Of a stretch of 64,000 nucleotides of DNA, positions 3,268 to 23,451 are shown in pieces (the first letter of the stretch is position 1; each line of letters starts with the position of its first letter). This DNA is from a virus, in the IMG/VR virus record IMGVR_UViG_3300046791_000499, positions 64,001-128,000 of that record. One strand, written 5' to 3'. Below the pieces are notes generated by a model that made no database searches, was not told the DNA's origin, and saw only the letters and a list, made by a program, of their open reading frames with translations. A program made the position numbers and the translations under genes.

Positions 3268-3993
3268 CTACTGCTGATCGTACCGAGCTTCGGCGCGGAG
3301 ACCGTCTAGCTCTGGCGGGATCAGCACGGATGCGTCGCAGTTGATCTTGATCGGCTCGATCTCACCATCGCCAACCCGCTTGTCCCGGGAAAGCTCACGC
3401 TTGACCAGCCAGTTGAGTCCTTCCGCGATCGCTTCATTGTTCTTGCAGTGCCTGGTCTGCTCGTCGCCGAGCCACCGGATCGTCAGCCCGAGGTTGCGGC
3501 GCATCGCTCGCTCCTTGTCGGCCTCGGCCTTCTCGAGTTTCGCCTGTCGTTCCTCGAGTTCGCTAACGTCGACAGCGGTCTGGGCTGCCATGATCTTGGC
3601 CTCGGCGATGTCGTCCGCGGACGTCAGGCTGGGTCCACCGATCGTGATCCCCAGCGACGCAAGGACTGCAGCAACGACCGGGAGCCAACCATTGCGAGGT
3701 CCGCCACCTCCGCCACCGGAGGCTGCATCTAGAAGACGATCCCTGAGAACTCGGAAGACCAGGGCTCCATCGTTCATCCGTTTGAGCTGCTCCGATGTTG
3801 GGGTCTCGCCTCGATCAACGGCGCGCCCAATCTCGGCACTGGCCTTGAAGGCGTCCTCGATCAGCGCGGATGGCGATCGGATGGACTCGCCGGGATGCGG
3901 CGCATCTTCTTCGGGTGTGGTTACTGCGCGCTTGAACGAACGACGCCGGCCACTCGATAGATCGATTGGTGCGGTGTCGTCGTCACGTGGCAC
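3268..3993 (-). CDS. Single-pass membrane protein with coiled coil (possibly lysis-related)
   Basis: Central TM segment 'WLPVVAAVLASLGITIGG' followed by a heptad-rich region. Confidence 0.6.
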   Translation of the reverse strand: MPRDDDTAPIDLSSGRRRSFKRAVTTPEEDAPHPGESIRSPSALIEDAFKASAEIGRAVDRGETPTSEQLKRMNDGALVFRVLRDRLLDAASGGGGGGPRNGWLPVVAAVLASLGITIGGPSLTSADDIAEAKIMAAQTAVDVSELEERQAKLEKAEADKERAMRRNLGLTIRWLGDEQTRHCKNNEAIAEGLNWLVKRELSRDKRVGDGEIEPIKINCDASVLIPPELDGLRAEARYDQQ

Positions 3994-4102
3994 GCGGCCA
4001 GGGTAGCCCACAGGTGGGGTCGCCGTCACGTGTGAGTCTCCCACTGCCTGTCAAGCGATGATTATCCCGGCGAACGCGAAGGGCCACGCAAGGGGAGCCG
4101 GC

Positions 4103-4435
4103 TCACGGAGGAGGCACCCACGGCTTGGCGCTGCCGTCGTTGAACGTCTCGGGAGGCACGCGACGCGGAAGCACTGACCGCTCGGCTCCGCACTTGTGGC
4201 AGTCGGGTGTCGGCGCGGCTTCGGCCCAGTCTGGGATTGCGGCAACGTGCATGGCTTGGTACCCGCACGCCGTGCATTGCCCCGGGTAGGATAGCCATTC
4301 GGTCCCCGGCCACGGTCGGCGCTCCGCCATGTTGATGATGTCGGCGCCGCCGTGCCGGTTGGGATCGGTCCATTCGACCAGCACCGCAACACACTCGGCC
4401 AGCGCCTCGGCGTCTTCGTCGTCTTCGTCGATCAC
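4103..4435 (-). CDS. Zn-ribbon protein
   Basis: CTAC and CHKC pairs. Confidence 0.6.
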   Translation of the reverse strand: MIDEDDEDAEALAECVAVLVEWTDPNRHGGADIINMAERRPWPGTEWLSYPGQCTACGYQAMHVAAIPDWAEAAPTPDCHKCGAERSVLPRRVPPETFNDGSAKPWVPPP

Positions 4436-4447
4436 GGATCCCCAAGA

Positions 4448-4642
4448 CTAGTCGCCGGTGGAAGCATCGACGGCAGCAACCCCGAGTTCGACGTCACCAA
4501 CCGCGCCGCTCGCCGCCTCGGCCGTGAAGTCGCCTTTGCGAGCCCGCTTGCGTGTCTTGGCCACGCTACGCTCACAGAACTGTTCCCAGTGGGCACAATT
4601 CTCACCCTCACACCACAAAGTAATCTCGCGCGTATAGCTCAC
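4448..4642 (-). CDS. Small Cys protein whose C-terminus is a copy of baseplate wedge residues
   Basis: 'LWCEGENC...ARKG' followed by 'DFTAEAASGAVGDVELGVAAVDASTGD', identical to part of 13173-14216. Confidence 0.6.
   Translation of the reverse strand: MSYTREITLWCEGENCAHWEQFCERSVAKTRKRARKGDFTAEAASGAVGDVELGVAAVDASTGD
4449..4532. repeat. 84-bp dispersed repeat, copy 1 (copy 2 at 14056-14139); 2 mismatches
   Basis: Direct base-by-base comparison. Confidence 0.95.
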
Positions 4643-4715
4643 AGGTTCGTGTCCTTCAACATGAGTAGTTCGTGGGCTTGGACGCCGAGCACCGATCCAC
4701 GCATACATCGCGGGT

Positions 4716-5492
4716 TCATCGTCGGTTCCACGTACAGCCAGCCAGCGGGACCGGGAGCACAAGATCGGTGCGGAGGGTGGCGAGCTGAAAGCACGTGCGT
4801 GCTGTGTCCTCATAGGCGCGCAGCAAGTTCATGACCTTCGTCGAGGTCACCAGATTTTTCCGCTCGAGCAGGTACTCGAGCGTGCCGTACTCGGCGAGCA
4901 GCTTGGCCGCGGTCTTGGATCCGACCCCCGGGATCCCCGTGTAGTTGTCGGACGTGTCTCCGATCAGGGCGAGCAGGTCCGGGATCCGCTCAGGCGGCAC
5001 GCCGAACTTCTCGACCGATTCATCCGGTCCCCATGTGCGCTTGCGGATCTCGTCGATCATCCGAACCTGGACCGGCTCGTCTCGCACGAGCTGCACCAGA
5101 TCCTTGTCGCCGGAGACGATCGTGACGCGCATGCCCTCGGCTACGGCTGCCGCAACGTAGGTAGCGATCATGTCGTCGGCCTCGTGGTCAGAGGCCGGGA
5201 TGCTGAGCGCCATTTTCCAAAAGCTGCACTGCCTCCGGCAGCCGAGCAGGACTTCGTTGAGACCCTCGGGTCGCGGAGGTCGGTTGGCCTTGTACGTCGG
5301 CCAGATCGAGCGGCGCCAGTTCGAGGAGTTGTCGAAGGGGTCGAACACGGCGACCGCATGTGTGGGCTCGTACCGGATCCGGTAGCGCCCGAGCGCGGAG
5401 CTGAATGCCTCCTCTGGCGGACGGTCAGTCGCGACGTGGAAGTAGCGGCGAGCCGCGTTGTCGCCGTCGACGACGAGCAGGTGTCCGGTCAT
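4716..5492 (-). CDS. 5'-3' exonuclease / flap endonuclease (Pol I N-terminal-like)
   Basis: 'LLVVDGDN', 'YKANRP', 'HEADDMIA', 'SGDKDLVQL', 'GDTSDNYTGIPGVGSKTA'. Confidence 0.95.
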   Translation of the reverse strand: MTGHLLVVDGDNAARRYFHVATDRPPEEAFSSALGRYRIRYEPTHAVAVFDPFDNSSNWRRSIWPTYKANRPPRPEGLNEVLLGCRRQCSFWKMALSIPASDHEADDMIATYVAAAVAEGMRVTIVSGDKDLVQLVRDEPVQVRMIDEIRKRTWGPDESVEKFGVPPERIPDLLALIGDTSDNYTGIPGVGSKTAAKLLAEYGTLEYLLERKNLVTSTKVMNLLRAYEDTARTCFQLATLRTDLVLPVPLAGCTWNRR

Positions 5493-5824
5493 GGCAGATC
5501 CTTGGCTTCGCGGATCTGCGTGGGTGAAACGATACCGGCCGTGATCATCGCGGCGTAGAAGTCGAACCCCTGGCTCACGAGCCCAACCGTGAACGCAACG
5601 TCGGCCGGCGCGACGACCCATTCGCCGAGCGACTCGGTCTCGAACCGGAGCAGCGTCCACAGGTTGCCCTTGACCACCTTGACCTCGTGCACCTTGAACA
5701 ACCCGGTGAAGTGCCGGATCCGCTGGACCGCGCACGGGCCCGTATCGTGGATCGCCCACGTCCAGCACGCGGGCAGCGGCACGCGTTCGAGTTCGTCGAG
5801 GGTCCATTGTCTGGTGCTGGTCAC
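5489..5824 (-). CDS. Hypothetical protein
   Basis: ORF coupled by ATGA overlap to the exonuclease; the upstream extension in the ORF track is tRNA antisense. Confidence 0.6.
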   Translation of the reverse strand: MTSTRQWTLDELERVPLPACWTWAIHDTGPCAVQRIRHFTGLFKVHEVKVVKGNLWTLLRFETESLGEWVVAPADVAFTVGLVSQGFDFYAAMITAGIVSPTQIREAKDLP

Positions 5825-5901
5825 GGGCGTGCTGACCGGACCCAAGCCAGCGGCATTCCCCGACGGCTTGCCCGATGTCCTGGTGCGTGATACGACTTGC
5901 C

Positions 5902-5976
5902 CGTGGGGTAGAGCAGCTAGGTAGCTCGCTGGGCTCATAATCCAGAGGTCGCTCGGTTCAAATCCGGTCCCCGCAA
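5902..5976 (+). tRNA. tRNA-Met(CAT), initiator type
   Basis: Cloverleaf with D arm GAGC..GCTC, anticodon loop CTCATAA, GGTTCAAATCC T loop, C1:A72 mismatch; no encoded CCA. Confidence 0.88.
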
Positions 5977-5992
5977 TCACCCAAAAATGAAA

Positions 5993-6036
5993 GACCCCGG
6001 TAGGCCCGCGAACGTGGCGGACAACCTACCGGGGTC
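5993..6036 (-). terminator. Intrinsic terminator hairpin between the tRNA and a convergent gene
   Basis: 12-bp inverted repeat GACCCCGGTAGG/CCTACCGGGGTC with a T-rich tract following on the minus strand. Confidence 0.7.
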
Positions 6037-6059
6037 GATGTTTGTGGACGGTGTGGCGA

Positions 6060-6782
6060 TCACTTCGGCGGCTGGCAGAACGCCATCTCGGGCTTCGCCG
6101 GGAACGGGTTCGGCCCGCCATCGGCCGGGAGGATGCCGCGGGTGATCAGGTTCGCCACGGTGTCATAGTAGAGCACGTGGACCTCGGCGGGCGTCTCGGT
6201 GGCGCGGTCGAAATTGGTCGTGGTGACCTTGCTCTCGACCGTCTCGCCGAAGCCTGTCCCAGTCGAGCGGGTTGGGCTCGCGTCGAGGCTGGCGTGATCG
6301 ATGCCGCCTCCGCCAAAACTCTGGCCACGCACTCCACTGCCGCGAGGCATGCTTGCGCCCATTGGAAACGCCGCTGGAGTCGGGGTTGCCATCATCCTCA
6401 TGACGGGCTGCTTCTCCTCGAACACGGCGCATCCGACCACGCCGACGTTCGAGCCGTCGCCGGTCTTGGCCGCGTAGCTCTCGCCAACGTCGACAAGCCG
6501 AAAGGCCGCGACCTCGGACATGCTCGTGCGCCAGCCCTTGAAGGCGTAGTAGGAGTTGCCCTGGATGACCATCGCCTCGCCGTCGGGATCCCCAGGCTTC
6601 CCGTCGAGCACGTTCTTGCCGTCGATGGTCACCACGACCGCGATGCGCCGCCAACCGTTGTTGGTGACCACGAGGTTGTAGCGCTGGTCGAGTTTGCCAC
6701 CGAGGTAGGTTCGGCCGTGTTGGGTTCCGATACGAAGGGGCTCACCCTCCGCGGCTTCGAGTTTGATGCTGACGAGTGACAT
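6060..6782 (-). CDS. Conserved beta-sandwich hypothetical protein
   Basis: 'VVTIDGKNVLDGKPG', 'GWRTSMSEVAAFR', 'NVGVVGCAVFEEK', 'GTGFGE' match a family I recognise, function unknown. Confidence 0.75.
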   Translation of the reverse strand: MSLVSIKLEAAEGEPLRIGTQHGRTYLGGKLDQRYNLVVTNNGWRRIAVVVTIDGKNVLDGKPGDPDGEAMVIQGNSYYAFKGWRTSMSEVAAFRLVDVGESYAAKTGDGSNVGVVGCAVFEEKQPVMRMMATPTPAAFPMGASMPRGSGVRGQSFGGGGIDHASLDASPTRSTGTGFGETVESKVTTTNFDRATETPAEVHVLYYDTVANLITRGILPADGGPNPFPAKPEMAFCQPPK

Positions 6783-7035
6783 GGTGCCGGCGTGACCAGC
6801 GTGCGGGCTCGGACATTCCCACCGGAATACGGATCCGCGCGGGCCGGTCGGGCAGGTATGAGCACCCAAGACACAACCTGACGGGAATGCGCGGCGGCGC
6901 TGGCGGTTGACCGGTCTCCATCCCGGAGCACCAGCCCAAGGAGTCCGTCATGCGCAGCTAGTCACCAGCGGAGGTTCAACCCCAAAGCTCAGTACGCACC
7001 GACGGGCATGGTCGGCGAGCGCCTGAGCTTCGGGC

Positions 7036-7287
7036 GTGATGCGGATCCTCTACGAGCGACACCAGGACATCGGCCCCAACGAGGTGCGCGAATACAGCGT
7101 CGAGGAGATCGTGAACCTTGGCTGCAAGGACGGCCGCGACGTGGTGGCGACCGCCGAGATCCTCGCTCGCCTCGTCGACACGCTCACATCCCGCGGGCTG
7201 CTCACGGCTGACGACATCGACACCATCGCGTTCGGGTATTCGGGCTCGCCGGGGCGCGTCATCGGATTCGTGCCCGAGGATCGGTGA
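7036..7287 (+). CDS. Hypothetical protein
   Basis: 83-aa ORF with GC3-biased codons. Confidence 0.6.
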   Translation: MMRILYERHQDIGPNEVREYSVEEIVNLGCKDGRDVVATAEILARLVDTLTSRGLLTADDIDTIAFGYSGSPGRVIGFVPEDR

Positions 7288-7291
7288 CCGC

Positions 7292-8392
7292 ATGGCCGAG
7301 CCTCCGAGCAGCGTGTGGCGTTTTTCCGGCGGCTGGCTGCTGTGGCGCGTCGCCGACGAGATCGACAGACGACAAGCGACTATCGTCCCGGGCTCGCGGC
7401 CCTGCCGTGCGTGCGGAGGCCGTGGGACATTTGCGGAGTGGGGGCAACAGGAGGTTGGGTTCCTGTTGCCCGATGCCACGGGATTGCCCAGGAGCCTCGC
7501 CGACCGCGAGACGATCATCGGCCGAGAGATCCGGTGGGACCGGGTACTCGTGTGTGATTGCGTGTTTCCGTTTTCGTCGCCAGACATCCGCCCGGAATGC
7601 CCGACGCGTCCAGACACGGTCTCGCTCGCGTGGCTCGTGGGGTTCCTCGCCGAGCTGCCCAAGCCAGCATTCGATTGGCCGGCTCAGTGGCTCGTCGATC
7701 TCGACTGGCGCGAAGCCCAAGGCGATGACTCATGGCAGGCTGTTTGGTGGGCGGAGTTCATGGCCTGGACGCGCGGTGCGGCGATCGACGTCGACCGTCT
7801 CCAGCGTGCGCTCGATGATGCTTACCTCGCGGAGCGTTTGAAACTCGCTCACGCGAACCGGCAGCCGTCGATCGCCGCAGCCGTTCGAGCGGTCGTGGGC
7901 GTGACGAGTGTCTGCGTGCTCGAGAACCGGGTCAGCGGGGACCCGGCCGAACGCTCACTCGAAGTACTCGTTGAAGGCGGCGAGGACGAAGCCGTTGCCG
8001 CGGCGATCTACTCGTCGATGCATCGGGGCATTCCGCTCATCGGCACGGTCTCGGTGATCCTCGAAGGTTCCCCAGCGCTCGGGCTCTGGGATGACTCATG
8101 GGCGGAGGTCAGGTTTTCGCGGCCGTCGTTCTCGGTCGTGTCGCATGGTGGCCTGGACGTCACGTGGACCGCTCACAACGTGGCCGTGATCAAACCGATC
8201 GCGGCCCAGGGCTGGAACTACTGGGGCTACTCGCTGGCGATCGATGAAGAGGTTGTCACCGTCATGTCCACGCCTGGCATGGATGTGTGCGCGCTGCTGC
8301 GCGATGGCATCTACCAGAACCCGGTGCTGGCCAACCGGGTGACCGCGGTCGCGGACAGCAGGACCCTCACCCTGACCAGGGTCGACGGCTAG
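7292..8392 (+). CDS. Chimeric protein: Zn finger + TIGR02996-like motif + baseplate-J fragment + sheath-like domain
   Basis: CRACGGRG; 'DLDWREAQGD'; 'IAAAVRAVVGVTSVCVLEN...LEVLVEGGEDEAVAAAIY...VRFSRP' aligns with 14219-15427. Confidence 0.8.
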   Translation: MAEPPSSVWRFSGGWLLWRVADEIDRRQATIVPGSRPCRACGGRGTFAEWGQQEVGFLLPDATGLPRSLADRETIIGREIRWDRVLVCDCVFPFSSPDIRPECPTRPDTVSLAWLVGFLAELPKPAFDWPAQWLVDLDWREAQGDDSWQAVWWAEFMAWTRGAAIDVDRLQRALDDAYLAERLKLAHANRQPSIAAAVRAVVGVTSVCVLENRVSGDPAERSLEVLVEGGEDEAVAAAIYSSMHRGIPLIGTVSVILEGSPALGLWDDSWAEVRFSRPSFSVVSHGGLDVTWTAHNVAVIKPIAAQGWNYWGYSLAIDEEVVTVMSTPGMDVCALLRDGIYQNPVLANRVTAVADSRTLTLTRVDG

Positions 8393-8656
8393 TCCCGGAG
8401 CAGGTCGAGCAACCCGTTGAGCACCGCGCTCGCGATGTAGCTCAGCACCACCGCGATCGCACAGCAGGCCGCAGCGTCTCGCACCCGGTGACGGATGACC
8501 ATCTGCGGGGACATGCGCTCGGCCGGCATCGATCGAGCATGGGCCAGCCGTACTGCTGAGTCCGACGAAAAGATGTCGGCACTCCAGATAGGTGACCCGG
8601 GGCGGACGAATCCACCCCGGGTCTTCGGGTCGATCGGACGGTCACCCGCCCGCACC

Positions 8657-9160
8657 TTAGAACGGGAGCCGATTGCTCGGCTGCTCCAATGTCGCAGGGA
8701 CACTGCCCGGATCAAGCGTAGCTTGATCCCCGGCGAAGCCGGCCTTGTCTGTGTTTGGTGGTTTCCGCTCGCGACGCAACGTCGCAAGCTGCTCGGTGAA
8801 GATCGAAAGGGCAGGCCCGAGCGCGTCGCCGCGGTTCTCGAGCCAGTCGCAAAACACGGGGAACTCATCGGTCCGCAAGCGTCGCTGCAGCTCGTCGAGC
8901 AGGTCGACCACGTGCACTCGCGCCAGGACCTCGCCGATTGGGAGCCGGCACATGGAGATGGTCTCGGCGCTGGAGATGGTGACCTTCAAGGTGGGCGAGC
9001 CCTCGTGATCGACACGGGCCTTGGCGCTCGCGCGGCGGTTGGGCTTACGGCCGCTGGGTCCCGTCAGGCCGGGCACGGTCATGCAGGCGTCCGCTCGCGG
9101 CCGGCCGAAGCCTTGTTGCCGCTGAGTTGCCAGCCGAGCGCGCTTGGCTTTCCGGGTCAT
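8657..9160 (-). CDS. Protein with TIGR02996-like motif
   Basis: 'FPVFCDWLENRGDALG'. Confidence 0.6.
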   Translation of the reverse strand: MTRKAKRARLATQRQQGFGRPRADACMTVPGLTGPSGRKPNRRASAKARVDHEGSPTLKVTISSAETISMCRLPIGEVLARVHVVDLLDELQRRLRTDEFPVFCDWLENRGDALGPALSIFTEQLATLRRERKPPNTDKAGFAGDQATLDPGSVPATLEQPSNRLPF

Positions 9161-9435
9161 CGTGGTGTCGACCGCGGGAGAGCGGCGGCTATTCCGGCCA
9201 ACTGGAGATGAGAGAAAGCTCGCACGCTGATCGGCTACGAAAAGTGAACCGTCCAGCCCCTGCCGTCACTGGTGCTGCATGGACCCCGTCGACCTCGCCC
9301 ATGACCATTGCTTTCAATCTATCCGATGCGCACTCGGCTTCGCATCATGGCACGAGCGGCTTGGCCTGTGGCTGGACGGCACGCTGACGCTGGCGGATCT
9401 GCGCAAGGCCCGGAGGTCTCGGCGCCAAACAGTGG

Positions 9436-9780
9436 TCAGGGGCGCCCGTTGACCTTCTCGCCACCGTGGGGGAGCCCCCTCTCAACCGTAGGGTGGAGGC
9501 TCGCTAGCAGGGCCTCGGTCTTCGCGTCGGCTTTCGCCCTGCGCGCTCGAGCCTTGACGATCGCGGCATCGTGCCGGGCTTTCAGTTCGACGCCCAGTGC
9601 TTCCATGGCCACGCGCCGATCCTCGAACGCCTTGCGCTTGGCCGCGCGTGCCTCCTCTTTCTCCGGGGAGTTTCGCTCCGCGCGAAGTCGCTCTCGGGCC
9701 GCGCGCTGTTCGTCCTTGCGCTTGGCGATGGTGGCGGCCTGCTGGACTTCGACGGGGGAGGACTCTTGGCTCTGTGGCAC
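9436..9780 (-). CDS. Charged helical hypothetical protein
   Basis: A/R/E/K-rich ORF; extended -10 (TGGTACTGT) 6 nt upstream of GTG. Confidence 0.55.
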   Translation of the reverse strand: MPQSQESSPVEVQQAATIAKRKDEQRAARERLRAERNSPEKEEARAAKRKAFEDRRVAMEALGVELKARHDAAIVKARARRAKADAKTEALLASLHPTVERGLPHGGEKVNGRP

Positions 9781-10108
9781 GAGCGCACAGTACCACGGCC
9801 GCAACACCATTGCGCCAAACGGGACGCAGCGCCACTGCGGTAGTACTGAATCGAACCTTGAACCCCTAACATGTGAGTTGTTAGGTGAACTATGCATATC
9901 ACCAACGCGGTGTCCGCAGTCACTTTCCGCGCACCGCGATTCGCACGGATTGCGCTCGGCGGTGATATGGGGCGATAGTCGCACGGCGAAACCGCTACCC
10001 GGTGCCTCCGCCGTGGCGATCCAGGTTGGGAGATGGCCAGGCCGCGAGGTTGGAATCGAACATCCTGCGATCCGGTAGCGAGCGCGAACCCCAAGAACGA
10101 ACCACACC

Positions 10109-11065
10109 ATGAACATTCATACCATTGCAACTATCGTCACCCTGCTCACGACCTTGGCCTGCGTGCCACCGGCATCCGAGTGCATGGGTGAGTGTGCTGA
10201 ATCGATCGACACCGAGGGCACCGAGTCTTCCGGCGATGGAGATGGCGACCAAACCGGGCCAGGCGATGGCGACGGCGAGCCGACCACCGATACCACCGGC
10301 GATGGAGATGACACCGGCGACGGAGATGGGGACGGCGATGGCGAGCCCGAGTGCGGCAACGCGGTGCTCGAGCCGGGCGAGCAGTGCGACGACGGCAACC
10401 TGCTCACCGGCGATGGATGCTCACCCGTGTGTGTGCTCGAGCCGGATGCGATCCCATGCGGCGACTCCATCTACGAGTGCGGCGACGGAGTCGACAACGA
10501 CAACGACGGCAAGACCGACATGGCCGACTCGAACTGCACGAGCCCATGCGACGACGACGAGAACTCACTGCTGACCTTGCCCGGCCAGGATGGCGACTGC
10601 GAGAAGGACTGCTTTTGGAACAATGGAGCCGACGCTTGCAGTTGGAACCTGACATGCGATCCCGACAGTCCAGGTGCCGACATCGGGTGCGAGTACGATC
10701 CAGCCGGCGGCCAATGCAATTTCGAGCAGACCCAGGAGTGCGTCGACTCCTGCTTGCCGCTGGTGCCCAACGCCTGCGACTGCTTCGGGTGTTGCCAGGT
10801 CGACGGGCTGTTCATCTACCTCGACTCGAACCCCGAGTGCTCGATGGACAACCTCGGCGCGTGCAACACGTGCACGTACTTCTACGGGTGCACCAACGAC
10901 TGCATCAAGGACGACTGCGAGTTGTGCTTCGGCGAGACGATCGATGAACTGCCGATGGGCTGTGCCGAGCCGAGCTGCGATGTCGGCACGCCGTGCGGAG
11001 AGCAGAGCGACTGCAACGATGGCGACTTCTGCCAGACCGGGTGCTGCGTTCCGATCCAGGGCTGA
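10109..11065 (+). CDS. Myxococcal Cys-rich repeat lipoprotein (moron)
   Basis: Lipobox TLAC, GDGDGD linker, 'CGNAVLEPGEQCDDGN..GDGCS', 'CGDGVDNDNDGKTD..DSNC'. Confidence 0.9.
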   Translation: MNIHTIATIVTLLTTLACVPPASECMGECAESIDTEGTESSGDGDGDQTGPGDGDGEPTTDTTGDGDDTGDGDGDGDGEPECGNAVLEPGEQCDDGNLLTGDGCSPVCVLEPDAIPCGDSIYECGDGVDNDNDGKTDMADSNCTSPCDDDENSLLTLPGQDGDCEKDCFWNNGADACSWNLTCDPDSPGADIGCEYDPAGGQCNFEQTQECVDSCLPLVPNACDCFGCCQVDGLFIYLDSNPECSMDNLGACNTCTYFYGCTNDCIKDDCELCFGETIDELPMGCAEPSCDVGTPCGEQSDCNDGDFCQTGCCVPIQG

Positions 11066-11072
11066 ATCAAGC

Positions 11073-11108
11073 GAACGAGCCGGCCCATTGCAGCGGGCCG
11101 GCTCGTTC
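11073..11108. terminator. Hairpin between convergent lipoprotein and tail fibre genes
   Basis: 14-bp perfect inverted repeat GAACGAGCCGGCCC/GGGCCGGCTCGTTC. Confidence 0.75.
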
Positions 11109-11138
11109 AAGGAGGTTGGCGGTCGGGCTCTACCCGGC

Positions 11139-13163
11139 TTAGTAGACACCTTTGACGGTCAGAACGATGTCGTACCAATCGACGGTTGCCGAGAAGTCGA
11201 GCCGCACTCGGAACGTGCGCTGGGCTGCGGTCGGCAACGTGTACTTCTTCCGAAACGTGAACGGCATCATTCGGCCCGTCGTCCCAGCGCCGTCAATGTC
11301 CAGCGAGTTGAGCGGCTGAGAAGTAGCCACGGTGACCGACCCCGTGACGTCCTTGAGCAGAATGGTCATCGTCGTGGTGTCGGTTCGTCCGTTCCACATT
11401 CCGGTGACCTCGACAAGCACAACGCCGGTTACCTCCGGTGTGATCACGGCGTCCGCGACATCGCCAGTTGTGCCGACGTTGGAGCCGTCGGTTGTGGTGC
11501 CGTCGCCGTGCACCCAGCCCTTCGTAGAGCTGTGGATGCTCTCGTACGCTGCGCCGTTGTGCGTCCGCCACTTCACGCGGCTCGAGTTCAAGAACAGCGA
11601 GCCGGCCTGCGTCGTCGTTGGATCCGAATCCACAGGCACAACGACAAGCGGGGAACGCTTTGGTGCCGTTGCGTCCGTCTCTAGCTTCGCCGCATTGCCG
11701 TCCACGCTCAAGGCGTAGAGTGCGTTTGCATCTCCGAGTCCCAACGCGGCAATCCCAACGCCGCTCGAGGTAGCAGCAGCGGATGAAGTGCCCACGACAC
11801 CCACTGCACCAGTATTGACCGCGACGCCCTTGACTCCGTAGCTGGTCGCGTTGTTGAAGCCCGTCCCGAGAACGCCGTTGACGCCGGCGCCGGTGCCTAC
11901 ACCCACGAGACCGCCATTGCCTGTGAACGGCTCGCTGCAGGACATCGTGCCGATTACCGCGATGATGTCGCCAGCCGCGTTGCCGAGCGTCGACGATCCA
12001 TTCAGCGCCGTTGCCCCGGTGACGGTGAGGGCGGCAATCGTTGCCGCAGCCAAGCAGTCGAAAGTATCAGCCGTGCTCGTCCCGATCGTGCACGTGAAAG
12101 CGCCAGACCCAATGCAGAGCGAGACATCGTGGCCGGCAGTCAAATATCCATCGGTGGAAATGCCGACGGTGGAAATGACGTTGCCTCCGACGATGACGTT
12201 GTATCCGAATGATCCGCTGTATGTGACGTTGAGATAGGCGTCCGTGGAGATGTTCCCGGCCGCATGCACCACGGTGCTCGAGTAGACACCGTTGTAGCCA
12301 AGCACGCTGTTGGCGACCATCGCCTGATCGATGTTGACGTTCTCACCGAAGTGGACGTCGCCTCCGATGGTCTCGAGCACGATCCCGGGTCCACCGAAAT
12401 CGTTGTGGAAGGTGGCCGTGGTGTCGGTCGCCGAGTTGTTGGCCACGGACAACGCCGGCCCGCCGTTGGCCCCGATGAGAACCGAGGCAAGTTCCCCCAC
12501 GAGCGGAGCACCCGTGACGATGAGTGCAGCATCGGCCGGCACCGTGATGGTCACCAAGTCGGTGAAATTCGTTTGGCCTGAGACCGTCAGTTCCTCGGCG
12601 CCGATCGACTTGTGCGTTGGGATCTCGGGCACGAGCACCGTCGCAGCGGTGACGTTCGCGCCGTCGGTCTCGATTTTCCAGATGGCCACATAGCCCGCGG
12701 CAGGGACCGGCGCACCCGCTCCGTTGTTGACTTCCTGGTACGCGACCAGCCCCGCCTCGTTGAGATTGACGTAGGTGTCCTTGCTCGCCGTGAAGGCGTG
12801 CGGGCTGCCAATCGCGACCGTGAACTGCACGACCACGCCGCCGTCATCGTTGGCGTCGACCATCACCCACGACGCGGTGATCGAACTGCTCAATCCCGCG
12901 CCGGTGGTCCACGCGCCCGAGGTCGGGAAGACGAACGTACCGAACAGGCCAGCCGACGACGGGACCATCCGCGAGATGCCCATCGCCCGGATCCACCGCG
13001 CGAGATGCTGCCACTCGTAGTTGACCGTGCCCGACGGCAGAATCACGGAGCCGAGACCGGCAGCCTCCTCGGCAGGCACGGCGAAGGGTCCGCCAGATTC
13101 TCCCCACGTGGGCTCGTCGTAGGTGTCGTCCGGGTTGACTGGGATATCGGTGACGGCGGTCAT
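11139..13163 (-). CDS. Tail fibre / receptor-binding protein
   Basis: Last gene of the tail operon; G/A/T/V-rich beta repeats; C-terminal beta-sandwich. Confidence 0.8.
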   Translation of the reverse strand: MTAVTDIPVNPDDTYDEPTWGESGGPFAVPAEEAAGLGSVILPSGTVNYEWQHLARWIRAMGISRMVPSSAGLFGTFVFPTSGAWTTGAGLSSSITASWVMVDANDDGGVVVQFTVAIGSPHAFTASKDTYVNLNEAGLVAYQEVNNGAGAPVPAAGYVAIWKIETDGANVTAATVLVPEIPTHKSIGAEELTVSGQTNFTDLVTITVPADAALIVTGAPLVGELASVLIGANGGPALSVANNSATDTTATFHNDFGGPGIVLETIGGDVHFGENVNIDQAMVANSVLGYNGVYSSTVVHAAGNISTDAYLNVTYSGSFGYNVIVGGNVISTVGISTDGYLTAGHDVSLCIGSGAFTCTIGTSTADTFDCLAAATIAALTVTGATALNGSSTLGNAAGDIIAVIGTMSCSEPFTGNGGLVGVGTGAGVNGVLGTGFNNATSYGVKGVAVNTGAVGVVGTSSAAATSSGVGIAALGLGDANALYALSVDGNAAKLETDATAPKRSPLVVVPVDSDPTTTQAGSLFLNSSRVKWRTHNGAAYESIHSSTKGWVHGDGTTTDGSNVGTTGDVADAVITPEVTGVVLVEVTGMWNGRTDTTTMTILLKDVTGSVTVATSQPLNSLDIDGAGTTGRMMPFTFRKKYTLPTAAQRTFRVRLDFSATVDWYDIVLTVKGVY

Positions 13164-13172
13164 GGTGATCGG

Positions 13173-14216
13173 CTATGGGTCGGTGGCGAGCGTGAACGCG
13201 AGGACATCGGGTCCGTCGAGTGCGCTTTCGTCGAGGGTGAAAACATCGGGTGCAGCTTCGGGCGAGAACACCAGCACCATGCGAACGCCGTGCGGGCGCC
13301 CGCGGTAGAGCACGTCGAAGTAGGTTAGCGCCTCGTTCTCGGTCAGCTCGAAGAAGTAGACGACGTAGGTCAGCGGGTCGGGGCGCTCGAGCAACCACGT
13401 CTGCGCTCCGTTCACCAACCCAGCGGCCAAGGCTTTGGTGACCGATGGCTGGCGGTTCGTGCCCACAGCCCCGTCGATCGGAACGAGCACGTTCTGATAC
13501 CTCTCGTCGCTCCAACCGTCCGGGCGGAGGAAACCGAGGTCGCGCCCGAGAGCGTCGAGATGCACTCCGATCGCAGTCAGGACCGAGCCCACCCGCCAGC
13601 GAACCTCCCACGATGATGCGAGCAGCTCGCCCACCGCTGCCGTGAGCACGGCCTGCCACACCTGGATCTCTGGGTCCTTGACCAGCGGCGGGCGCATGGT
13701 CTGGAACCACCGCGTATTCGGATCCACGGGGTTCTGTGCGTAGATCGGATCGCCGATGATCTCGATCGTCGTGGCCAGCGGAACGGTCGTAGTCGACCCC
13801 CACGGCGACCACAGGATCCGCATGTGGTACGCGGTGATGCCATCCTGTTCGTTCGTTTCCCAGTCCGTGGGCATCGACCAGCGGATCGAAACCACGCCCG
13901 TCTCGGTCAGCGCTGCGGTCGCGTCGACCAGGTTGGGCAGCTTCACCCATGCGCTGCCGTTCCAATACTGGTACGCCAACCCGCTGGTCCCGAGGAACGC
14001 GGTCGAGATGTCGATCTCGATCTCGACGAAGGGGTAGGTCCAGCCGACCACGAAATAGTCGCCGGTGGAAGCATCGACGGCAGCAACCCCGAGTTCGACG
14101 TCACCCACCGCACCGCTCGCCGCCTCGGCCGTGAAGTCGGTCCAGATGTCGCCGTCCTCCTGGAACAGCCGAGCGCTCACTGGGTAGTTGGTGAAGTTGT
14201 CGTAGGCGTCTGTCAT
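13173..14216 (-). CDS. Baseplate wedge protein (DUF2612/gpI-like) with N-terminal extension
   Basis: 'TAIGVHLDALGRDLGFLRPDGWSDERY', 'RPHGVR'; follows the J gene. Confidence 0.75.
   Translation of the reverse strand: MTDAYDNFTNYPVSARLFQEDGDIWTDFTAEAASGAVGDVELGVAAVDASTGDYFVVGWTYPFVEIEIDISTAFLGTSGLAYQYWNGSAWVKLPNLVDATAALTETGVVSIRWSMPTDWETNEQDGITAYHMRILWSPWGSTTTVPLATTIEIIGDPIYAQNPVDPNTRWFQTMRPPLVKDPEIQVWQAVLTAAVGELLASSWEVRWRVGSVLTAIGVHLDALGRDLGFLRPDGWSDERYQNVLVPIDGAVGTNRQPSVTKALAAGLVNGAQTWLLERPDPLTYVVYFFELTENEALTYFDVLYRGRPHGVRMVLVFSPEAAPDVFTLDESALDGPDVLAFTLATDP
14056..14139. repeat. 84-bp dispersed repeat, copy 2 (donor, inside wedge gene)
   Basis: Matches 4449-4532. Confidence 0.95.
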
Positions 14217-14218
14217 TC

Positions 14219-15427
14219 CTACGCTCCGGTCACGGTGATATCGGTGAGTTCGTTGTCGATGGCGAACTGCTCACGAACCGCGGCCTCGAGTGTGCCCGTG
14301 TTCACCGGCGGGTCAACGATGTCGACCTCGACCACGATGTTGTCGATGCCGGGGATCCCCGCGTTGTTGTTCACGTAGGCGGCGATCTTGAAGCCGCTGG
14401 TGTTCTCGCCGGGAACGAGCGCCTCAACGTAGGTCACGACGGCTGCCCGGATCGCTGTCTCCCGAGCCGCAATGGCCTCGACGCTCATGTCGCCCGGATA
14501 GCCCTCGCCCTTGGTGATCGTGACCTCGATGTAGATCGCCACGAGTTCGGGGCGCGAGAACTTGATCGTGACCTGGCCGCCGACGTAGTCCGCGTCGATG
14601 ATCCCCACAATCGTGTTGCCGACCGTGTTGACGCCCTTCGCACGCGAGGCTTGGATCGCGGCGGCGACCGCATCGTCGTCGCCACCCACGACCAGGACTT
14701 CGACCCAATGCGTGAGGCCCCAGTAGGCGTCAGGGGTGTTGGTCGGGTTCTCGAGCAGCGAAGCCGAGGTCACCCCCGCGACCGCGCGCACGGCCGCGAT
14801 CATGTTGCTGAGCAGCGCGTCTCGCCACCGCTGCCGATACTCGGCGTCGGTCTCGTCGCTGCGGCCTGGGATCGCATCGGCGACGTTGGGCCCGACTGAA
14901 AGCCAGCCCGTGACCGGCGTCAGGATCGTCCAGTCGGACGCCGCGATCGCTGTCTTCGGTCCGGTCTCGAAGTACTCCCATGTCCCGTCGATCGTACCAC
15001 CGCCAGGGATCGTCACCGCGCCGACCAGCGCCCACGCGCCGGTCTCGTCAGCGAGCGCCACGGTCTGGCCAGCCGGCACGTTGACGTTGGGCCCCACCGC
15101 GGCGAACAGCGGCAGCACGACGGTGCTCCCCACGGCTGCCAGCTTCGGACCGATCCTCGGGGTCAGCAGCAGTTCGAGGCTTGAGCCCTCGGCGACGCCG
15201 TTGGTGCCGGGAGCCGCCGAAATGAACTTCGAGTTGTAGTTGCCCGCGCCATCATCCCACGCGTCCTTCATGACGTTAGCGAAGGTGCGCAGGAGGTCCG
15301 CTGCAGGGCCGTTCTCGACGTCGATGTTGGCGCTGGTCTCGGCCTTGTACTTGTTCTGCAGGTCGAGCAGGACCATGTCGTAGGTAGCCGGCAGCCAGCC
15401 GGTTGTCGTGTCATAGCCGAAGGACAT
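14219..15427 (-). CDS. Baseplate J/gp47-like protein
   Basis: 'AEGSSLE', 'GRSDETDAEYRQR', 'VEVLVVGGDDDAVAAAI', 'KFSRP'. Confidence 0.9.
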   Translation of the reverse strand: MSFGYDTTTGWLPATYDMVLLDLQNKYKAETSANIDVENGPAADLLRTFANVMKDAWDDGAGNYNSKFISAAPGTNGVAEGSSLELLLTPRIGPKLAAVGSTVVLPLFAAVGPNVNVPAGQTVALADETGAWALVGAVTIPGGGTIDGTWEYFETGPKTAIAASDWTILTPVTGWLSVGPNVADAIPGRSDETDAEYRQRWRDALLSNMIAAVRAVAGVTSASLLENPTNTPDAYWGLTHWVEVLVVGGDDDAVAAAIQASRAKGVNTVGNTIVGIIDADYVGGQVTIKFSRPELVAIYIEVTITKGEGYPGDMSVEAIAARETAIRAAVVTYVEALVPGENTSGFKIAAYVNNNAGIPGIDNIVVEVDIVDPPVNTGTLEAAVREQFAIDNELTDITVTGA

Positions 15428-15430
15428 GAT

Positions 15431-15802
15431 CTACGTTCCGATCTCGATTGATGTACCAGTGATCGTCCGAAAGGTCACTTTGATCGTGACCCTTGGACCG
15501 TTCGCCGCTTCGTTGTCCACCGTCACGATGGGCCCCGCAACGACCGACTCGACTCGCGGATGAGCCAGTACGACGTCACGCACGAGCGCACCGCGTTCCT
15601 CATCGCTCGTGTTGGGATCCAGGATCCGGTCGTAGTCCAAGCCCTCATCGGTGTTGAACACGTACTTGCCGAACGGCGTGGCCAGTTGCAGGTAGACCTC
15701 GACCCGCGTGGCGTTGTCGTCGTCCGTCGTGTAGGCCAGCGGGCGGACGAGTTCACCAGCGTTGGCGCCGGTCGTGTACATGTCGAGCGTCATGCCGGCC
15801 AT
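15431..15802 (-). CDS. Baseplate wedge / sheath initiator (gp25-like)
   Basis: 'LQLATPFGKYVFNTDEGLDY', 'HPRVESV'; position before J. Confidence 0.75.
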   Translation of the reverse strand: MAGMTLDMYTTGANAGELVRPLAYTTDDDNATRVEVYLQLATPFGKYVFNTDEGLDYDRILDPNTSDEERGALVRDVVLAHPRVESVVAGPIVTVDNEAANGPRVTIKVTFRTITGTSIEIGT

Positions 15803-16038
15803 GGGTCATCTCCGATATCGGCCAAACACTGTGGTCGGCGATGGTGCGGGTGGCTGAAATACCGGTCCAACGCTGGCTTCGTGAGCGCAACAGGCGGGCC
15901 AAGATTTGGAAGCACCTCGCCGTCGATGCCCATCAAGAGTTCATGTGCGTGCCCCTCGTGCGTGACCCAAGCACACGAAAACCGGCCGGTGGTTCCGCGG
16001 CCAGCCAAATAGGCCATGAGTTGCGCTTCGTCCATCAA
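15790..16038 (-). CDS. Small hypothetical protein within the baseplate operon
   Basis: 82-aa ORF overlapping both neighbours. Confidence 0.5.
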   Translation of the reverse strand: MMDEAQLMAYLAGRGTTGRFSCAWVTHEGHAHELLMGIDGEVLPNLGPPVALTKPALDRYFSHPHHRRPQCLADIGDDPWPA

Positions 16039-18026: not shown

Positions 18027-18815
18027 CTACTCGCCCTTCGCTTTCAGAGTCTCAGGCGAATTCAGACCGATCGCGGTGTTCCATGCGGTCTGCGCTGTGG
18101 TGGCGCCCGTAAAGGCTGGTCCGGCGCCAGCGGCCACGAGAGCGTTGAGCATCGATGTCATCGCCGAACTCAACGCAGCCCAGTTGGTGAGCGACAGCGC
18201 AGCCGGACCGCCTATGGTCACCGATTGCCCCGTGGGAACATCGATCGCAACCGAGCCCGAGGCGCTCAGCGTTATGGTGGCCGAGACCACCCCAGCCTTG
18301 GTGAGCGTCAGGACCCCGTCCGGTCCCACTCGAAGCGCATCCCCGACCGGGCCTTGGAGCACCCAGTCTTCGTCTTCGTCGGTGACCGAGGCCGGTGGTT
18401 GCGGCGTCGGCGGGGTAATTCGGAAGGGCAGCACCACCGCGTCGGAGAGATCATGGTGCCGCTGGTCGAGCGAGTGCGCCTGGCCGACGAGTTTGGTCTG
18501 CCTCCATCGCTCGGAGTTGCGATCCGAGCAGACGGCGAGGCACTCGTCGCCGGCCGTCATCGGCCAACGCATGGAGAATCCTCCACCGCCTGGGAAGGCG
18601 ACTGGGGCGCTCGGAGCCTGTCCATCGCCTTTCTCTTCGCCGCCGCGCCGCGAGCCGATGCCAGCATCAAAGTCGACGTCCATCTCGCCGAGGGCCTGTC
18701 GCGCGATCGCTGCGATCTTGCCGAGCACGACGGTCCGCGCGTTGCGGATCTTCTCGTCGATGACGACGGCGATCGCCTCGATCAGCACGCCCGCGTCACC
18801 AGTCTTGGCCGTCAT
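18027..18815 (-). CDS. Baseplate spike (Gp138-like)
   Basis: 'PVAFPGGGGFSMRWPMTAGDECLAVCSDRN', 'RHHDLSDAVVLP'. Confidence 0.85.
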   Translation of the reverse strand: MTAKTGDAGVLIEAIAVVIDEKIRNARTVVLGKIAAIARQALGEMDVDFDAGIGSRRGGEEKGDGQAPSAPVAFPGGGGFSMRWPMTAGDECLAVCSDRNSERWRQTKLVGQAHSLDQRHHDLSDAVVLPFRITPPTPQPPASVTDEDEDWVLQGPVGDALRVGPDGVLTLTKAGVVSATITLSASGSVAIDVPTGQSVTIGGPAALSLTNWAALSSAMTSMLNALVAAGAGPAFTGATTAQTAWNTAIGLNSPETLKAKGE

Positions 18816-21616
18816 TGGACCCCCGGGATCGTCCGCCCACCGCCGTGCGCAGCGAGCAGCCTCTTGCCCTGCAGCTCGAACATCGCAGCCACGAGCGCGG
18901 GCAAGTCTTCCAACTTGGCGAGCATCGCGTCCCGAGCCTGATTCGCGGCATCCTGCATCGCATCGTTCTCCTCGACCGAACCCGCACCGTGGATGGTGAT
19001 CGTGAGGTTCTCGATCAGTTTGATGATCGGGGCGATTGTGATCAAGAGCGTTTGCGGTGGCGGCCTGCCTTCGAGCACCGAGCCTGGACCGCGAAGCCCG
19101 AGCATGTCGAGGATGTTCTTGGACGCCCCGTCGAAGATCCGGCCGGCCTGGCGAAAGCGCTCCTCGAGTTCCTTGGCCCGCGTGCGACCGGCCTCGCGTG
19201 CGAGCGCGACGGCTTGATCTGGATCGGTGCCGCCAGCGATCAGGCGTTCGAGTTCACGCTGAGCGAACTCCTCGGCCTGTTTCTCGGCCGCCTTTTTCAC
19301 GTCCTCCTCGAATTGGAAGAACGTGTCGCCCTTCCCCTTCTTTCCCTTCTTCCCCTTGGCTGCGCCCTTGACCTTGCCGATCTGGCCAACGGCTGCCTCG
19401 GCCGCGGCGTCGGCTGAACCAGTCGAGGCAAAGGTGGCGGTCGCGGTCTCGAACGCTTTCTGGCGCGTCGCTCGATTGCCCTCCAACACGGCCGCTCGCG
19501 CAGCTCGGCCAGCAGCGTCAGCATCCCCGCCGCGCTTTTTGGCCTCGGCTCGGGCTGTCTTCTCAGCTGAGTCCGCTCGGACCCGCTCCGCCTTCGCCAC
19601 AGCGTCGTATACCTGGCGGCCCTCGGCGGTGAACAACTTGGAGGCTCCCTGCTCGGCCTGCTCGGCTGTGCCCTTCGAGAGCTGATTGAGCCGGAAATTG
19701 GCCTCATTCACGTCAGTCTCGGCGAGAAGACCCGCGCCCAGCCCTCCAACCGCACCCTGCACACGAGCCTTTGTCGCCTTCTCGCGTTCCTGTTTCTGCT
19801 TGTCGTACGCCTGGTTGCGCTCAAACCTCGCTCGCTCCATCGCGTCGATGTTGGCGTTGGTCTGCCGGATCGATGCTTCGAGCGCCTTGATCTCCCGCTC
19901 GCTCTCCGAGATCGAATCGTTCAAACCCGTGATGTCGGCTACGGCACTTGCGGCCATGTTGCCGAGCGCGAGACCAACAGCACCAGCCGCCACGACCAGG
20001 CCAGCCGGCCCCATCATCGCCGTGGACATGCCGACGATCAGGAGCGTGGCGTTGATGAGAGCGTTCTCCATCCCGCCCGAGATCTCGATGAAGCTCTGGA
20101 TCGCATCGATGATCATGCCGACCGCCTCGGCCCCACCAACCACCGCATCGTAGAAGGCGTCTAGCGCCCCGCCGACATCCTCTGGCGAGACCGATCCGAT
20201 GAACTCGCGGACCGCTTCGATGGCCGTGACGAGTGCATCCGACAGCACTTGCGCAAAGCCGCCGCTCTCGGAGAACCGGCCATTCAGATCTGTGATCAGG
20301 CCCTTGAAGGCATCGAGCGCGCCGGCCTGTGAGACCTGGTCGAAGAACTGCGCGATGCCGTCCTTCAAGTTCGAGATCATGCCGGCAGCGGTCTCGGTTT
20401 GGTTCGCCATCGAGCCGGCGAACTCGGTCTCGCCAAGGCCCTTCAAATAGGCGCTGATCTCGTCAGAGCTTTTGCCGACCGTGGTGGTCAGGCCCTTGAA
20501 CGTGAAGGCGACCTTGTCTCCTTGGGTCGACGCCTTGATCCCGAATTCTTTGAGCCGCTCGAACTCGCCGGTACTGGCGTCGGCGACAGCCTCGACGAAC
20601 TCGATGATCGGCTTGCCCTGCGCCGCGGCGATGTTACCGAACGCGGTGAGCGATTCGGTCGACGCATCCAGGCCGATGTTTTTGAGCCGGATATAGGCGG
20701 TGGTGACCTCCTCAAGCTCGAATGGTGTGGTCTTGGCGAACTGCTGGATCAGACCGAACGCCGCGCTCGCACCCTCGGCCGAGCCCTCGACGGTCTTGAG
20801 TCGCGACCGGAGCGACTCGAAGTTGACTCCGGTCGAGAGCACGGCGGTGCCCAGGGCCGCGACCCCGATCGCACCAATGGAGGCGACGCGACCAACCGTT
20901 GCCGCGATCCCGCCGATGTCGCTCGCGGTGCTGCGCAGGATCTCTCGGCGACGATCCCGAGTCGATGCCTCATCGTTCAGATCGTCGAGCCGACGACGCT
21001 TGCGGTCCAGGAACAGCCGCGCGTCATCGTCGATCATCTTGTGATGCGACCGCTGACGATCCGAGGCGACCTGTTCGGAGTGCTTCCGGTTGTCCTCCGT
21101 TGCCCGCTCTCGGCTGACCCGTAGCTTGTCGAGCGCTCGCCCTTCCGAGGCCGCGATCCTCTGCGACGCTTTCTCCTCTGCCGCCGCCGCTCGCTCGGAT
21201 GCTCGGATGCGTGCGGCGATCTGCTTGTCCGACGCTGCGATAATCCGCTCGGACGCGCGCTCGTGGGCGGCGGCCTGCTTCGCGGCGAGAGAGTCCTCCT
21301 TGTCGGCGGCCTTCTCAGCGCTCGAGACCGCTTTCAAGAAGTCGGTCTCAGCCCGAACCGCAGCCTTCGCCCGGGTCGCCGCGGCTTTCTCGGCTGCCTT
21401 CGCAGCGCGCTCGGTCTCCTTGGCGAGCTGCCGTTCGGCGACCGCAGCCTTGGCCGCCGTGCGCTCTGACTCACCGAGTGAGCGGTCGAGATCGTCGGTT
21501 GCTCCGGCCGCTCGCTTCGATGTCCTGCTGAGCTTCTCCGCGTCGGCGTCGGCCTCCTTGAAGCCCTCGCCGTTGTACTTGGTGACGATGGAGATGATGA
21601 AGCGGCGCAGTTCCAT
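18812..21616 (-). CDS. Tape measure protein
   Basis: 934 aa, Ala-rich helical; 'FAKTTPFELEEV', 'GEFERLKEFGI'. Confidence 0.93.
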   Translation of the reverse strand: MELRRFIISIVTKYNGEGFKEADADAEKLSRTSKRAAGATDDLDRSLGESERTAAKAAVAERQLAKETERAAKAAEKAAATRAKAAVRAETDFLKAVSSAEKAADKEDSLAAKQAAAHERASERIIAASDKQIAARIRASERAAAAEEKASQRIAASEGRALDKLRVSRERATEDNRKHSEQVASDRQRSHHKMIDDDARLFLDRKRRRLDDLNDEASTRDRRREILRSTASDIGGIAATVGRVASIGAIGVAALGTAVLSTGVNFESLRSRLKTVEGSAEGASAAFGLIQQFAKTTPFELEEVTTAYIRLKNIGLDASTESLTAFGNIAAAQGKPIIEFVEAVADASTGEFERLKEFGIKASTQGDKVAFTFKGLTTTVGKSSDEISAYLKGLGETEFAGSMANQTETAAGMISNLKDGIAQFFDQVSQAGALDAFKGLITDLNGRFSESGGFAQVLSDALVTAIEAVREFIGSVSPEDVGGALDAFYDAVVGGAEAVGMIIDAIQSFIEISGGMENALINATLLIVGMSTAMMGPAGLVVAAGAVGLALGNMAASAVADITGLNDSISESEREIKALEASIRQTNANIDAMERARFERNQAYDKQKQEREKATKARVQGAVGGLGAGLLAETDVNEANFRLNQLSKGTAEQAEQGASKLFTAEGRQVYDAVAKAERVRADSAEKTARAEAKKRGGDADAAGRAARAAVLEGNRATRQKAFETATATFASTGSADAAAEAAVGQIGKVKGAAKGKKGKKGKGDTFFQFEEDVKKAAEKQAEEFAQRELERLIAGGTDPDQAVALAREAGRTRAKELEERFRQAGRIFDGASKNILDMLGLRGPGSVLEGRPPPQTLLITIAPIIKLIENLTITIHGAGSVEENDAMQDAANQARDAMLAKLEDLPALVAAMFELQGKRLLAAHGGGRTIPGVQ

Positions 21617-22351: not shown

Positions 22352-22965
22352 CCGGATGCAGCCTCGCTTGGGGGCACGGCAGTCGGGGGATCGACAGGCT
22401 TGGAGGTCGCGGCGACTGGGCGCGCGAAGCTGATCTCGTCGGCGTAGTTGAACCGCAACGACTCCGCGAGCAGGCGCCACTTGGTGGCCGGCGACGAGCC
22501 CACGAGCACCGCGCCGAGCACCTTGTAGTCGGTGATCCTGATCTCGCCCCTACCGGTCTGGACCAGGGTCTTGTTGAACACGGCCAACTGCATGAGGCGA
22601 TGCAGGTCCTTGGGCTCGAGCCGGGCGAGCAGGACCGGGAACGCCTCGCCGAGAAGGCTGCCGGCCACGTCGGGGAGAACCTCGAGCAGCCGAGCCCACG
22701 CCCTGGCGATGCGACCGTCGGACGTGTCGAGGTCCCCGAGGTTGGCCAGGTCGAAGTCAGCCCCGGAGCCCGTGGTCTCGGCCAGGAACAGCGCGACCTC
22801 TTTGGCGAGCGCGTCGACGACGATGCCGACGCCTACGGCTGCCGCGGGACCGAGCACCCGAAGCAAGATGCACTCGATCTCGAACTGCTCTTCGGGACCC
22901 GTACGCGTGATGATCCACGTACGGTCGTCGAAGCTGAGCGTCTTCTTGGGGTCGATGCGATCCAT
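22348..22965 (-). CDS. Tail assembly chaperone
   Basis: Position after the tube gene; 'LLAESLRFNYAD' end motif. Confidence 0.65.
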   Translation of the reverse strand: MDRIDPKKTLSFDDRTWIITRTGPEEQFEIECILLRVLGPAAAVGVGIVVDALAKEVALFLAETTGSGADFDLANLGDLDTSDGRIARAWARLLEVLPDVAGSLLGEAFPVLLARLEPKDLHRLMQLAVFNKTLVQTGRGEIRITDYKVLGAVLVGSSPATKWRLLAESLRFNYADEISFARPVAATSKPVDPPTAVPPSEAASG

Positions 22966-22977
22966 GGATTACCTCGA

Positions 22978-23451
22978 TCACGGCATCAACGAGATGATCT
23001 CTTCTTGGGTCAACTGCGGCGGGTTCACCCACTTGCCGACCTGAGCGATCTGGAACACCCCGATCAGCGGCCAACTGACGACCTCGACGGTATCGGCGTT
23101 GAAGTTTCGCGTCGGCTGGGCCTCGATCGAGACCGAGCCGGAGACGAACTTCGTGGTCTCGTAGGTCAGCGAGACCCCGAGGATCTTTCCGAACTGCCGG
23201 ATCGCCTTGACCGCCGCGAAGATGAACGAGTCGTCCTCGCTCATCGGCATGACGTTGACCGTGAACCGATAGGCGTTGGACCCGTTGATGATGTGCGCCG
23301 CCGTATTGTGAAGGCCGCCAATGAGCGCCGACTCTGGAGACATCTTCTCCAGGATGGCGATCGTCCCGACATCGGGCAGCGCCGTGATGCGCTTGCCGCT
23401 GATGTTCAGGAACAGATTCGATTGTTGGATGATGACGGTCTCGTTGGACAT
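22978..23451 (-). CDS. Tail tube protein
   Basis: 157 aa, beta-rich, directly after the sheath gene. Confidence 0.75.
   Translation of the reverse strand: MSNETVIIQQSNLFLNISGKRITALPDVGTIAILEKMSPESALIGGLHNTAAHIINGSNAYRFTVNVMPMSEDDSFIFAAVKAIRQFGKILGVSLTYETTKFVSGSVSIEAQPTRNFNADTVEVVSWPLIGVFQIAQVGKWVNPPQLTQEEIISLMP

Follow-up and report, generated by a model that had tools for sequence, protein, structure and literature searches.

A short patch of a baseplate wedge-type gene at the 3′ end of a small zinc-ribbon gene in an uncultivated phage genome

In the genome of an uncultivated phage, an 84-nt tract of a baseplate wedge-type gene recurs, in frame and almost unchanged, at the 3′ terminus of a small zinc-ribbon gene that lies at a distance of 9.6 kb. 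We favour, at a probability of roughly 0.57, the reading that this is the scar of a one-step replacement, in which a wedge patch overwrote the 3′ part of the small zinc-ribbon gene. We take the product to be most likely a scar, neutral or degenerative, rather than a selected fusion, and the event looks like an ordinary trace of repair or replication rather than a new functional graft.

The genome is a 143,093-bp IMG/VR virus record with a terminal overlap, rated complete by CheckV and with a GC content of about 65%. The window, that is, the stretch of DNA analysed here, comprises 64,000 nt (bases 64001–128000 of the record), and positions below refer to it unless they are marked as genome positions. 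A major head protein, recognised through phrog_264, belongs to a recognisable contractile-tail module together with a tail sheath (23464–24840, minus strand, phrog_205), a tape measure protein (18812–21616, PF20155), a baseplate hub (phrog_196) and a baseplate J-like wedge subunit (14219–15427, minus strand; phrog_6, E 6e-24). The sheath is about 25% identical to the sheaths of Xanthomonas and Pantoea myophages, and the phage is far from all isolates.

Genes around the copied tract lie mostly on the minus strand. The J-like gene is the upstream neighbour of the wedge-type gene (13173–14216, minus strand), after which comes a 674-aa fibre-like protein (11139–13163). A convergent plus-strand block (about 7027–11065) lies between two minus-strand blocks, the second of which holds a 269-aa gene without assigned function, a 5′–3′ exonuclease (4716–5807, PF02739/PF01367), the small zinc-ribbon ORF and a 110-aa protein; a tRNA-Met (CAT) sits on the opposite strand (5902–5976, plus strand), in the gap that separates the exonuclease gene from the minus-strand gene next to it. 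The 110-aa protein (4103–4435, minus strand) carries a CxxC...CxxC pattern and has no Pfam match, and its GTG start stands 12 nt past the TAG of the small ORF, in the same frame. A 7-bp inverted repeat, CCAAGAC/GTCTTGG (4433–4450), brackets the end of the small ORF.

The duplicated tract and its source

Positions 4449–4532 and 14056–14139 are identical at 82 of 84 nt without a gap, a pair that reaches E 1e-33 in a self-BLASTN of the whole 143,093-bp record. The repeat is real, far beyond chance, and the duplication is recent. The ORFs that contain the two copies are both on the minus strand and read them in one and the same frame, giving an identical 27-aa peptide, DFTAEAASGAVGDVELGVAAVDASTGD, which makes up codons 27–53 of the 347-aa wedge-type protein and the C-terminal 27 residues of the small ORF. 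The two differences fall at third positions and are synonymous (GGT in the donor and GGC in the copy, Gly; GTG in the donor and GTT in the copy, Val), and the longest identical run between the copies is 51 nt. The initial annotation, made from the letters of the window, had described a recent in-frame duplicate at the end of a small Cys ORF, with an 82-of-84 match and two synonymous changes, and alignment and translation bear out each of these points; its count of 26 captured codons is valid solely under the clean-insertion model discussed below, the identical peptide being 27 codons long.

Two random changes in the tract would both be synonymous with a probability of 0.07. It may be a sign that the peptide is under selection in both places, although selection acting on the donor would be sufficient by itself. 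Codon preference is uninformative as to which copy changed, with one common and one rare codon in each. Predicted RNA folding of the tract is unremarkable on both strands (z +0.7 to +1.1), and no promoter- or terminator-like site was found at it.

The record is a metagenome assembly, and an exact repeat of 127 bp elsewhere in it coincides with the contig ends, which raises the question of whether the copy at 4449–4532 is an assembly or library chimera that does not exist in the real phage genome. We regard this as very unlikely: an artefact ought to match its source at every base, but here the copies differ at two positions, and both junctions have unique flanks and leave the tract in frame with a sensible stop.

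As initially proposed, and judging from homologues of both partners, the baseplate wedge-type gene is the donor, because a full-length homologue keeps the segment and the relatives of the small ORF are without it. The homologue (P0003; 346 aa, 67% identity) has DYTAAAESAGVGDVSLGVAAANASTGDYF at the same position, and the alignment with more distant versions of the N-terminal module, from IMG/VR tail proteins, runs across the tract region; because both cover this region, the segment is native to the wedge-type gene. By contrast, it is absent from all of the roughly 109 relatives of the small ORF.

The donor protein consists of an N-terminal CBM32-like β-sandwich (residues 1–155) and a C-terminal domain that stands alone in relatives (~195 aa; P0004–P0012 cover just residues ~155–347), and it looks like a fusion. 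The N-terminal module recurs in one to four tandem copies within far bigger tail proteins encoded by other uncultivated phages, such as L004. An AlphaFold (AF2) model of this domain, made from the module alignment, is a β-sandwich with a pLDDT of 85 and a pTM of 0.81; Foldseek places it nearest to the LME-1 phage tail chain 9efk_M (TM 0.75), and also finds the CIS baseplate chains 9gtp_1G, 6j0n_J and 7b5h_AH, followed by many CBM32/discoidin-type modules. The donor protein has no sequence match in Pfam, PHROG or the PDB. Its gene stands directly downstream of a J/gp6-type gene in the contractile-tail module, the position of P2 gpI, T4 gp7 and Cis12-type proteins. The label of baseplate wedge gene, used in the initial annotation, fits this position and the fold matches, although no sequence family confirms it.

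Within the AF2 model, tract residues 27–53 connect strands 24–27 and 54–59 by way of a short helix and a long loop; no other stretch is modelled with less confidence, and in the domain-family alignment it is here that gaps are most frequent. As modelled, the copied piece is a helix-plus-loop excursion, a surface loop of the β-sandwich, and not a folding unit.

A tract in the loop that varies most within a carbohydrate-binding-like domain would suit a silent gene-conversion cassette or a template, like that of a diversity-generating retroelement (DGR), that varies the CBM-like surface loop of the wedge-type protein. A DGR would share with the present case two near-identical repeats of about 80 nt, one of them in a tail-associated CBM-like domain. 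However, the peptide is the same in both copies, which leaves nothing varied; there is one cassette alone; no match to the reverse transcriptase family PF00078 was found at E ≤ 1 in the 143-kb record, whereas control genomes did match; and the differences, T/C and G/T in gene sense or A/G and C/A on the other strand, put one of the two at an adenine on either choice of template and so are not adenine-specific. We rejected a DGR, as the initial annotation had done on the same grounds, and consider a silent cassette of any such kind hardly credible.

Attachment sites were likewise rejected. The 9.6-kb interval holds the rest of the wedge-type gene, the gene for the 674-aa fibre-like protein, the tRNA-Met and the 5′–3′ exonuclease, and because it carries essential tail genes, recombination between the repeats would be lethal and they are not att sites. 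Pfam and PHROGs gave no integrase among the subset of ORFs between the repeats that was scanned. No Ku was found in the genome.

The recipient gene and its family

The chimeric small ORF occupies 4448–4642 on the minus strand, with a GTG start at 4642 and a TAG stop at 4450–4448, and encodes 64 aa, of which residues 1–37 are the native zinc-ribbon N-terminal half and residues 38–64 the copy of the wedge-type gene. The start was set at this GTG because relatives begin with MSxT.EIT.WC there. A word-based search yielded a 75-aa relative (P0001) that is 78% identical over the shared part, and an exhaustive phmmer search with P0001 returned 109 cluster representatives (P0014–P0122), nearly all of 55–90 aa and aligned over query residues 1–53. 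These share the consensus MSxTxEITxWCDxxxCxxW...R..AR..GWTxRxGKDxCPxC, a four-Cys zinc ribbon of about 53 aa, in which W10, C11, C16 and W19 are invariant and conservation is 90% or more at G38, W39, D46 and C48. No Pfam model matches the family, and PHROG gives weak matches alone (phrog_17873, phrog_926, phrog_8303 and phrog_9007, all with function unassigned); among isolated phages there is a single weak match, a hypothetical gene of Microbacterium phage IndiRoo.

With a family HMM made from 29 of the 109 relatives, the match to the window ORF covers positions 1–37 (50.7 bits, E 5e-17) and nothing further. The N-terminal W-C-x4-C hairpin and the R..AR helix are present. The second knuckle, GW..G.D.CP.C (HMM positions 41–54), was found neither in the six frames of 3900–4900 nor elsewhere in the genome; at its position the window ORF reads DFTAEAAS..., no Cys follows residue 24, and two of the four conserved Cys are gone. 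Compared with the family pattern WCD..C..W...AR..GW..R.G.D.CP.C, residues 1–37 of the ORF thus agree, whereas its second knuckle is replaced by sequence of the wedge-type gene. An AF2 prediction of the chimeric ORF has a pLDDT of about 80 for residues 1–37, as the hairpin and helix, and of 43–64 for the borrowed tail.

Read in a shifted frame, the copied tract gives ERRGW*RRTRGCCRRC, which bears a faint likeness to the missing knuckle, but this reading scored 0.4 bits and was taken as GC-rich noise. Neither paralogues of the small ORF nor a displaced knuckle were found elsewhere in the genome, and the longer family members have no continuation that resembles the next gene.

Judged by this alignment, the window ORF is a truncated family member, and the copied tract starts within two or three codons of the point at which the domain is cut. 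The initial annotation had pictured a clean insertion added to a working accessory gene, and this did not hold, with the HMM match stopping at 37 and the knuckle missing in all frames. A simple insertion into an intact gene is excluded because the knuckle is lost exactly where the copy sits. Either the patch took the place of the gene’s 3′ third, or it was inserted where the gene had already been truncated.

An allele without the copy was sought among relatives, as had been suggested, in phage, IMG/VR and metagenome sets, and neither a close relative nor an empty allele was found. A megablast of 4000–16000 against 50,697 phage records and a tblastn of the wedge-type protein against phages gave no match. 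Scans of IMG/VR reached at most 35% identity with the wedge-type protein and found nothing with the next gene or with the small-ORF alignment, and a scan of genome contigs for a close relative found none. One candidate from the metagenome scan (L021) was a false positive of lower GC with unrelated ORFs.

Borders of the copy and the route of copying

Two copies of the 7-mer AGTCGCC mark the borders of the recipient tract (4450–4456 and 4528–4534, both given on the plus strand). The left-hand one is wholly within the tract, where it shares bases with the minus-strand TAG stop, and the right-hand one has five bases within the homology tract and CC outside it. The donor has AGTCGCC at 14057–14063 and AGTCGGT at 14135–14141, which agrees with the initial description of a full 7-mer at one end and five of seven bases at the other. 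Read in gene sense, the copy is entered from AAAGG into CGACTTCACG and left from GGCGACTA into GTCTTGG, and the corresponding joints of the donor run from TGGAC into CGACTTCACG and from GGCGACTA into TTTCGTG. The pentamer CGACT, which occurs about once per 750 bases per strand, stands at the start and at the end of the donor tract, and GGCGACT stands at both recipient borders. Beyond the homology tract, the 7-mer repeat gains CC alone, with a chance of about 0.1.

[quoted passage not shown] The patch would have been gained, and the knuckle lost, in a single event. Such an event is favoured because it explains both the missing knuckle at the same joint and an ORF at the usual length of the family, 64 aa being typical within the range of 55–90 aa. 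It leaves the repeated pentamer unexplained, and the same 5-mer at the donor ends and the extra GG fit a clean insertion better.

The clean insertion would have placed 78 nt of templated sequence into an ORF already truncated to ...ARKGD-TAG: a strand slipped at GGCGACT to the wedge CGACT, copied 78 nt to the next GGCGACTA and returned, leaving a 7-bp direct repeat. Its joints would share 5 bp (CGACT) and 8 bp (GGCGACTA), and the predicted empty allele would read ...AAAGGCGACTAGTCTTGG.... We consider this sequence of events possible, though rather unlikely. CGACT and GGCGACT stand where it would require them, the removal of 78 nt restores an intact ...KGD-TAG reading, and the other recent event in this genome is also a precise insert with a short repeat (AAG). 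But two independent events, a knuckle deletion and then an insertion, would be needed within about three codons, the ORF before insertion would have had 38 aa, well under the family range, and the CC outside the homology tract is all that the repeat adds to it.

We lean modestly towards a single replacement over truncation followed by clean insertion. Of the microhomology-templated insertion put forward in the initial annotation, the short border repeats stand and a microhomology mechanism is probably the best fit, but the clean 78-nt insertion does not carry over.

Other copies in the genome and comparison with known processes

Self-comparison of the whole genome by BLASTN at word sizes 11 and 7, which had been suggested as a search for more captures, gave a single further dispersed repeat of high identity besides the 84-nt pair, a recent ectopic copy of 127 bp. 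Genome positions 22862–22988 are internal and identical at 100% to genome positions 1–127, and the contig end, genome positions 142975–143093, is a 119-bp overlap (all outside the window). Internally, the copy amounts to an insert of 126 bp with AAG at its flanks, directly past the ATG of a plus-strand gene; removing the 126 bases restores ATG-AAG-TTC-TTC (MKFFLPDS), and the insert brings a stop after 26 codons. The insert breaks the start of this gene, with a clearly damaging effect. The ORFs run on across the contig ends, which points to a source copy within a long minus-strand gene. As in the 84-nt case, the patch is short and ectopic, a few bases are repeated at its flanks, and its length is a multiple of three. 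A 69-bp inverted repeat of 90% identity, also outside the window, surrounds about 2 kb (genome positions 138142–138210 and 140183–140251).

More diverged likenesses to tail proteins occur in accessory ORFs. An ORF in the same block as the small ORF (7292–8392, plus strand), with no Pfam or PHROG match, has 92 aa that are 40% identical to residues 208–295 of the baseplate J-like protein (BLASTP E 8e-12). Another accessory ORF (49825–51015, minus strand), a possible third and old case, has 76 aa that are 34% identical to sheath residues 105–171 (BLASTP E 2e-5). The last ~28 aa of the tape measure protein (18846–18924) recur at 71% amino acid and 72% nucleotide identity at genome positions 38166–38244, in an ORF (genome positions 37665–38654) on the strand opposite to the tape measure gene. 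When 14 accessory ORFs were compared with 20 structural proteins by BLASTP, three of the 14 gave significant matches.

The J-like and sheath-like stretches, the in-frame tract and its two synonymous differences speak for a selected functional graft, in which the wedge-derived tail would dock on a baseplate partner or mimic the wedge as an assembly factor or decoy. We nevertheless think such a graft improbable. The piece is, in the model, a loop and not a folding unit, the recipient is without two of its four conserved Cys, selection acting only on the donor would account for the synonymous pair, the sister event damages a gene outright, and significant matches were limited to three among the accessory ORFs compared. 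The older, domain-sized J-like and sheath-like copies may leave room for a selected role.

A wider version of this idea, in which the phage deliberately fuses pieces of its own tail proteins (wedge loop, J centre and sheath) to zinc-binding or accessory modules, strikes us as far-fetched. If it were true, the fusions would be assembly regulators or decoys for tail-sensing host defences and the 84-nt copy their youngest recruit; membership in such a set, a small chance, would be the sole route to wider significance. The initial annotation had called the copy a snapshot of how structural fragments are grafted onto accessory genes. As a general process this is plausible, and older domain-sized copies exist, but the present piece is a loop and the sister event breaks a gene.

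Returning to the one-step replacement, two described processes bear comparison with it. In phage mosaicism as described by Hendrix and Hatfull, illegitimate recombination at little or no homology makes new junctions, mostly with junk products. The present case shares the new gene junction formed with little or no homology; it differs in that both partners lie in one genome and in that the patch is far below the size of a gene module.

By analogy, SPDIR appears to be the best fit, and the closest described prokaryotic process, to the 84-nt event. In SPDIR, as outlined in its preprint description, intragenomic single strands anneal at microhomologies at the replication fork and give rise to microindels of 3 to ~100 bp (bioRxiv 10.1101/2023.11.22.568220). 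Both involve an ectopic intragenomic patch of less than about 100 bp in an unrelated locus, and joints at a few common bases and a net insertion–deletion would probably be further points of likeness; here the short patch (a tract of 78–84 nt) has an ectopic source to which it is identical at 82 of 84 nt, with the direction given by homologues. The differences are that ours is a fixed natural event in a phage genome, whereas the SPDIR account on which we draw concerns an Acinetobacter reporter, and that the 126-bp sister event is slightly over the stated size range.

The copy is a new natural example of an already known kind of mutation. It offers a clean natural case of a short intragenomic patch written into another phage gene, and together with its sister makes two in one 143-kb genome. 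Its product is most likely a disabled small gene, so that it informs on mutational processes in phage replication more than on a new system. Events of this kind are the raw material of mosaic and chimeric phage genes, and the older domain-sized copies show that some of their products persist.
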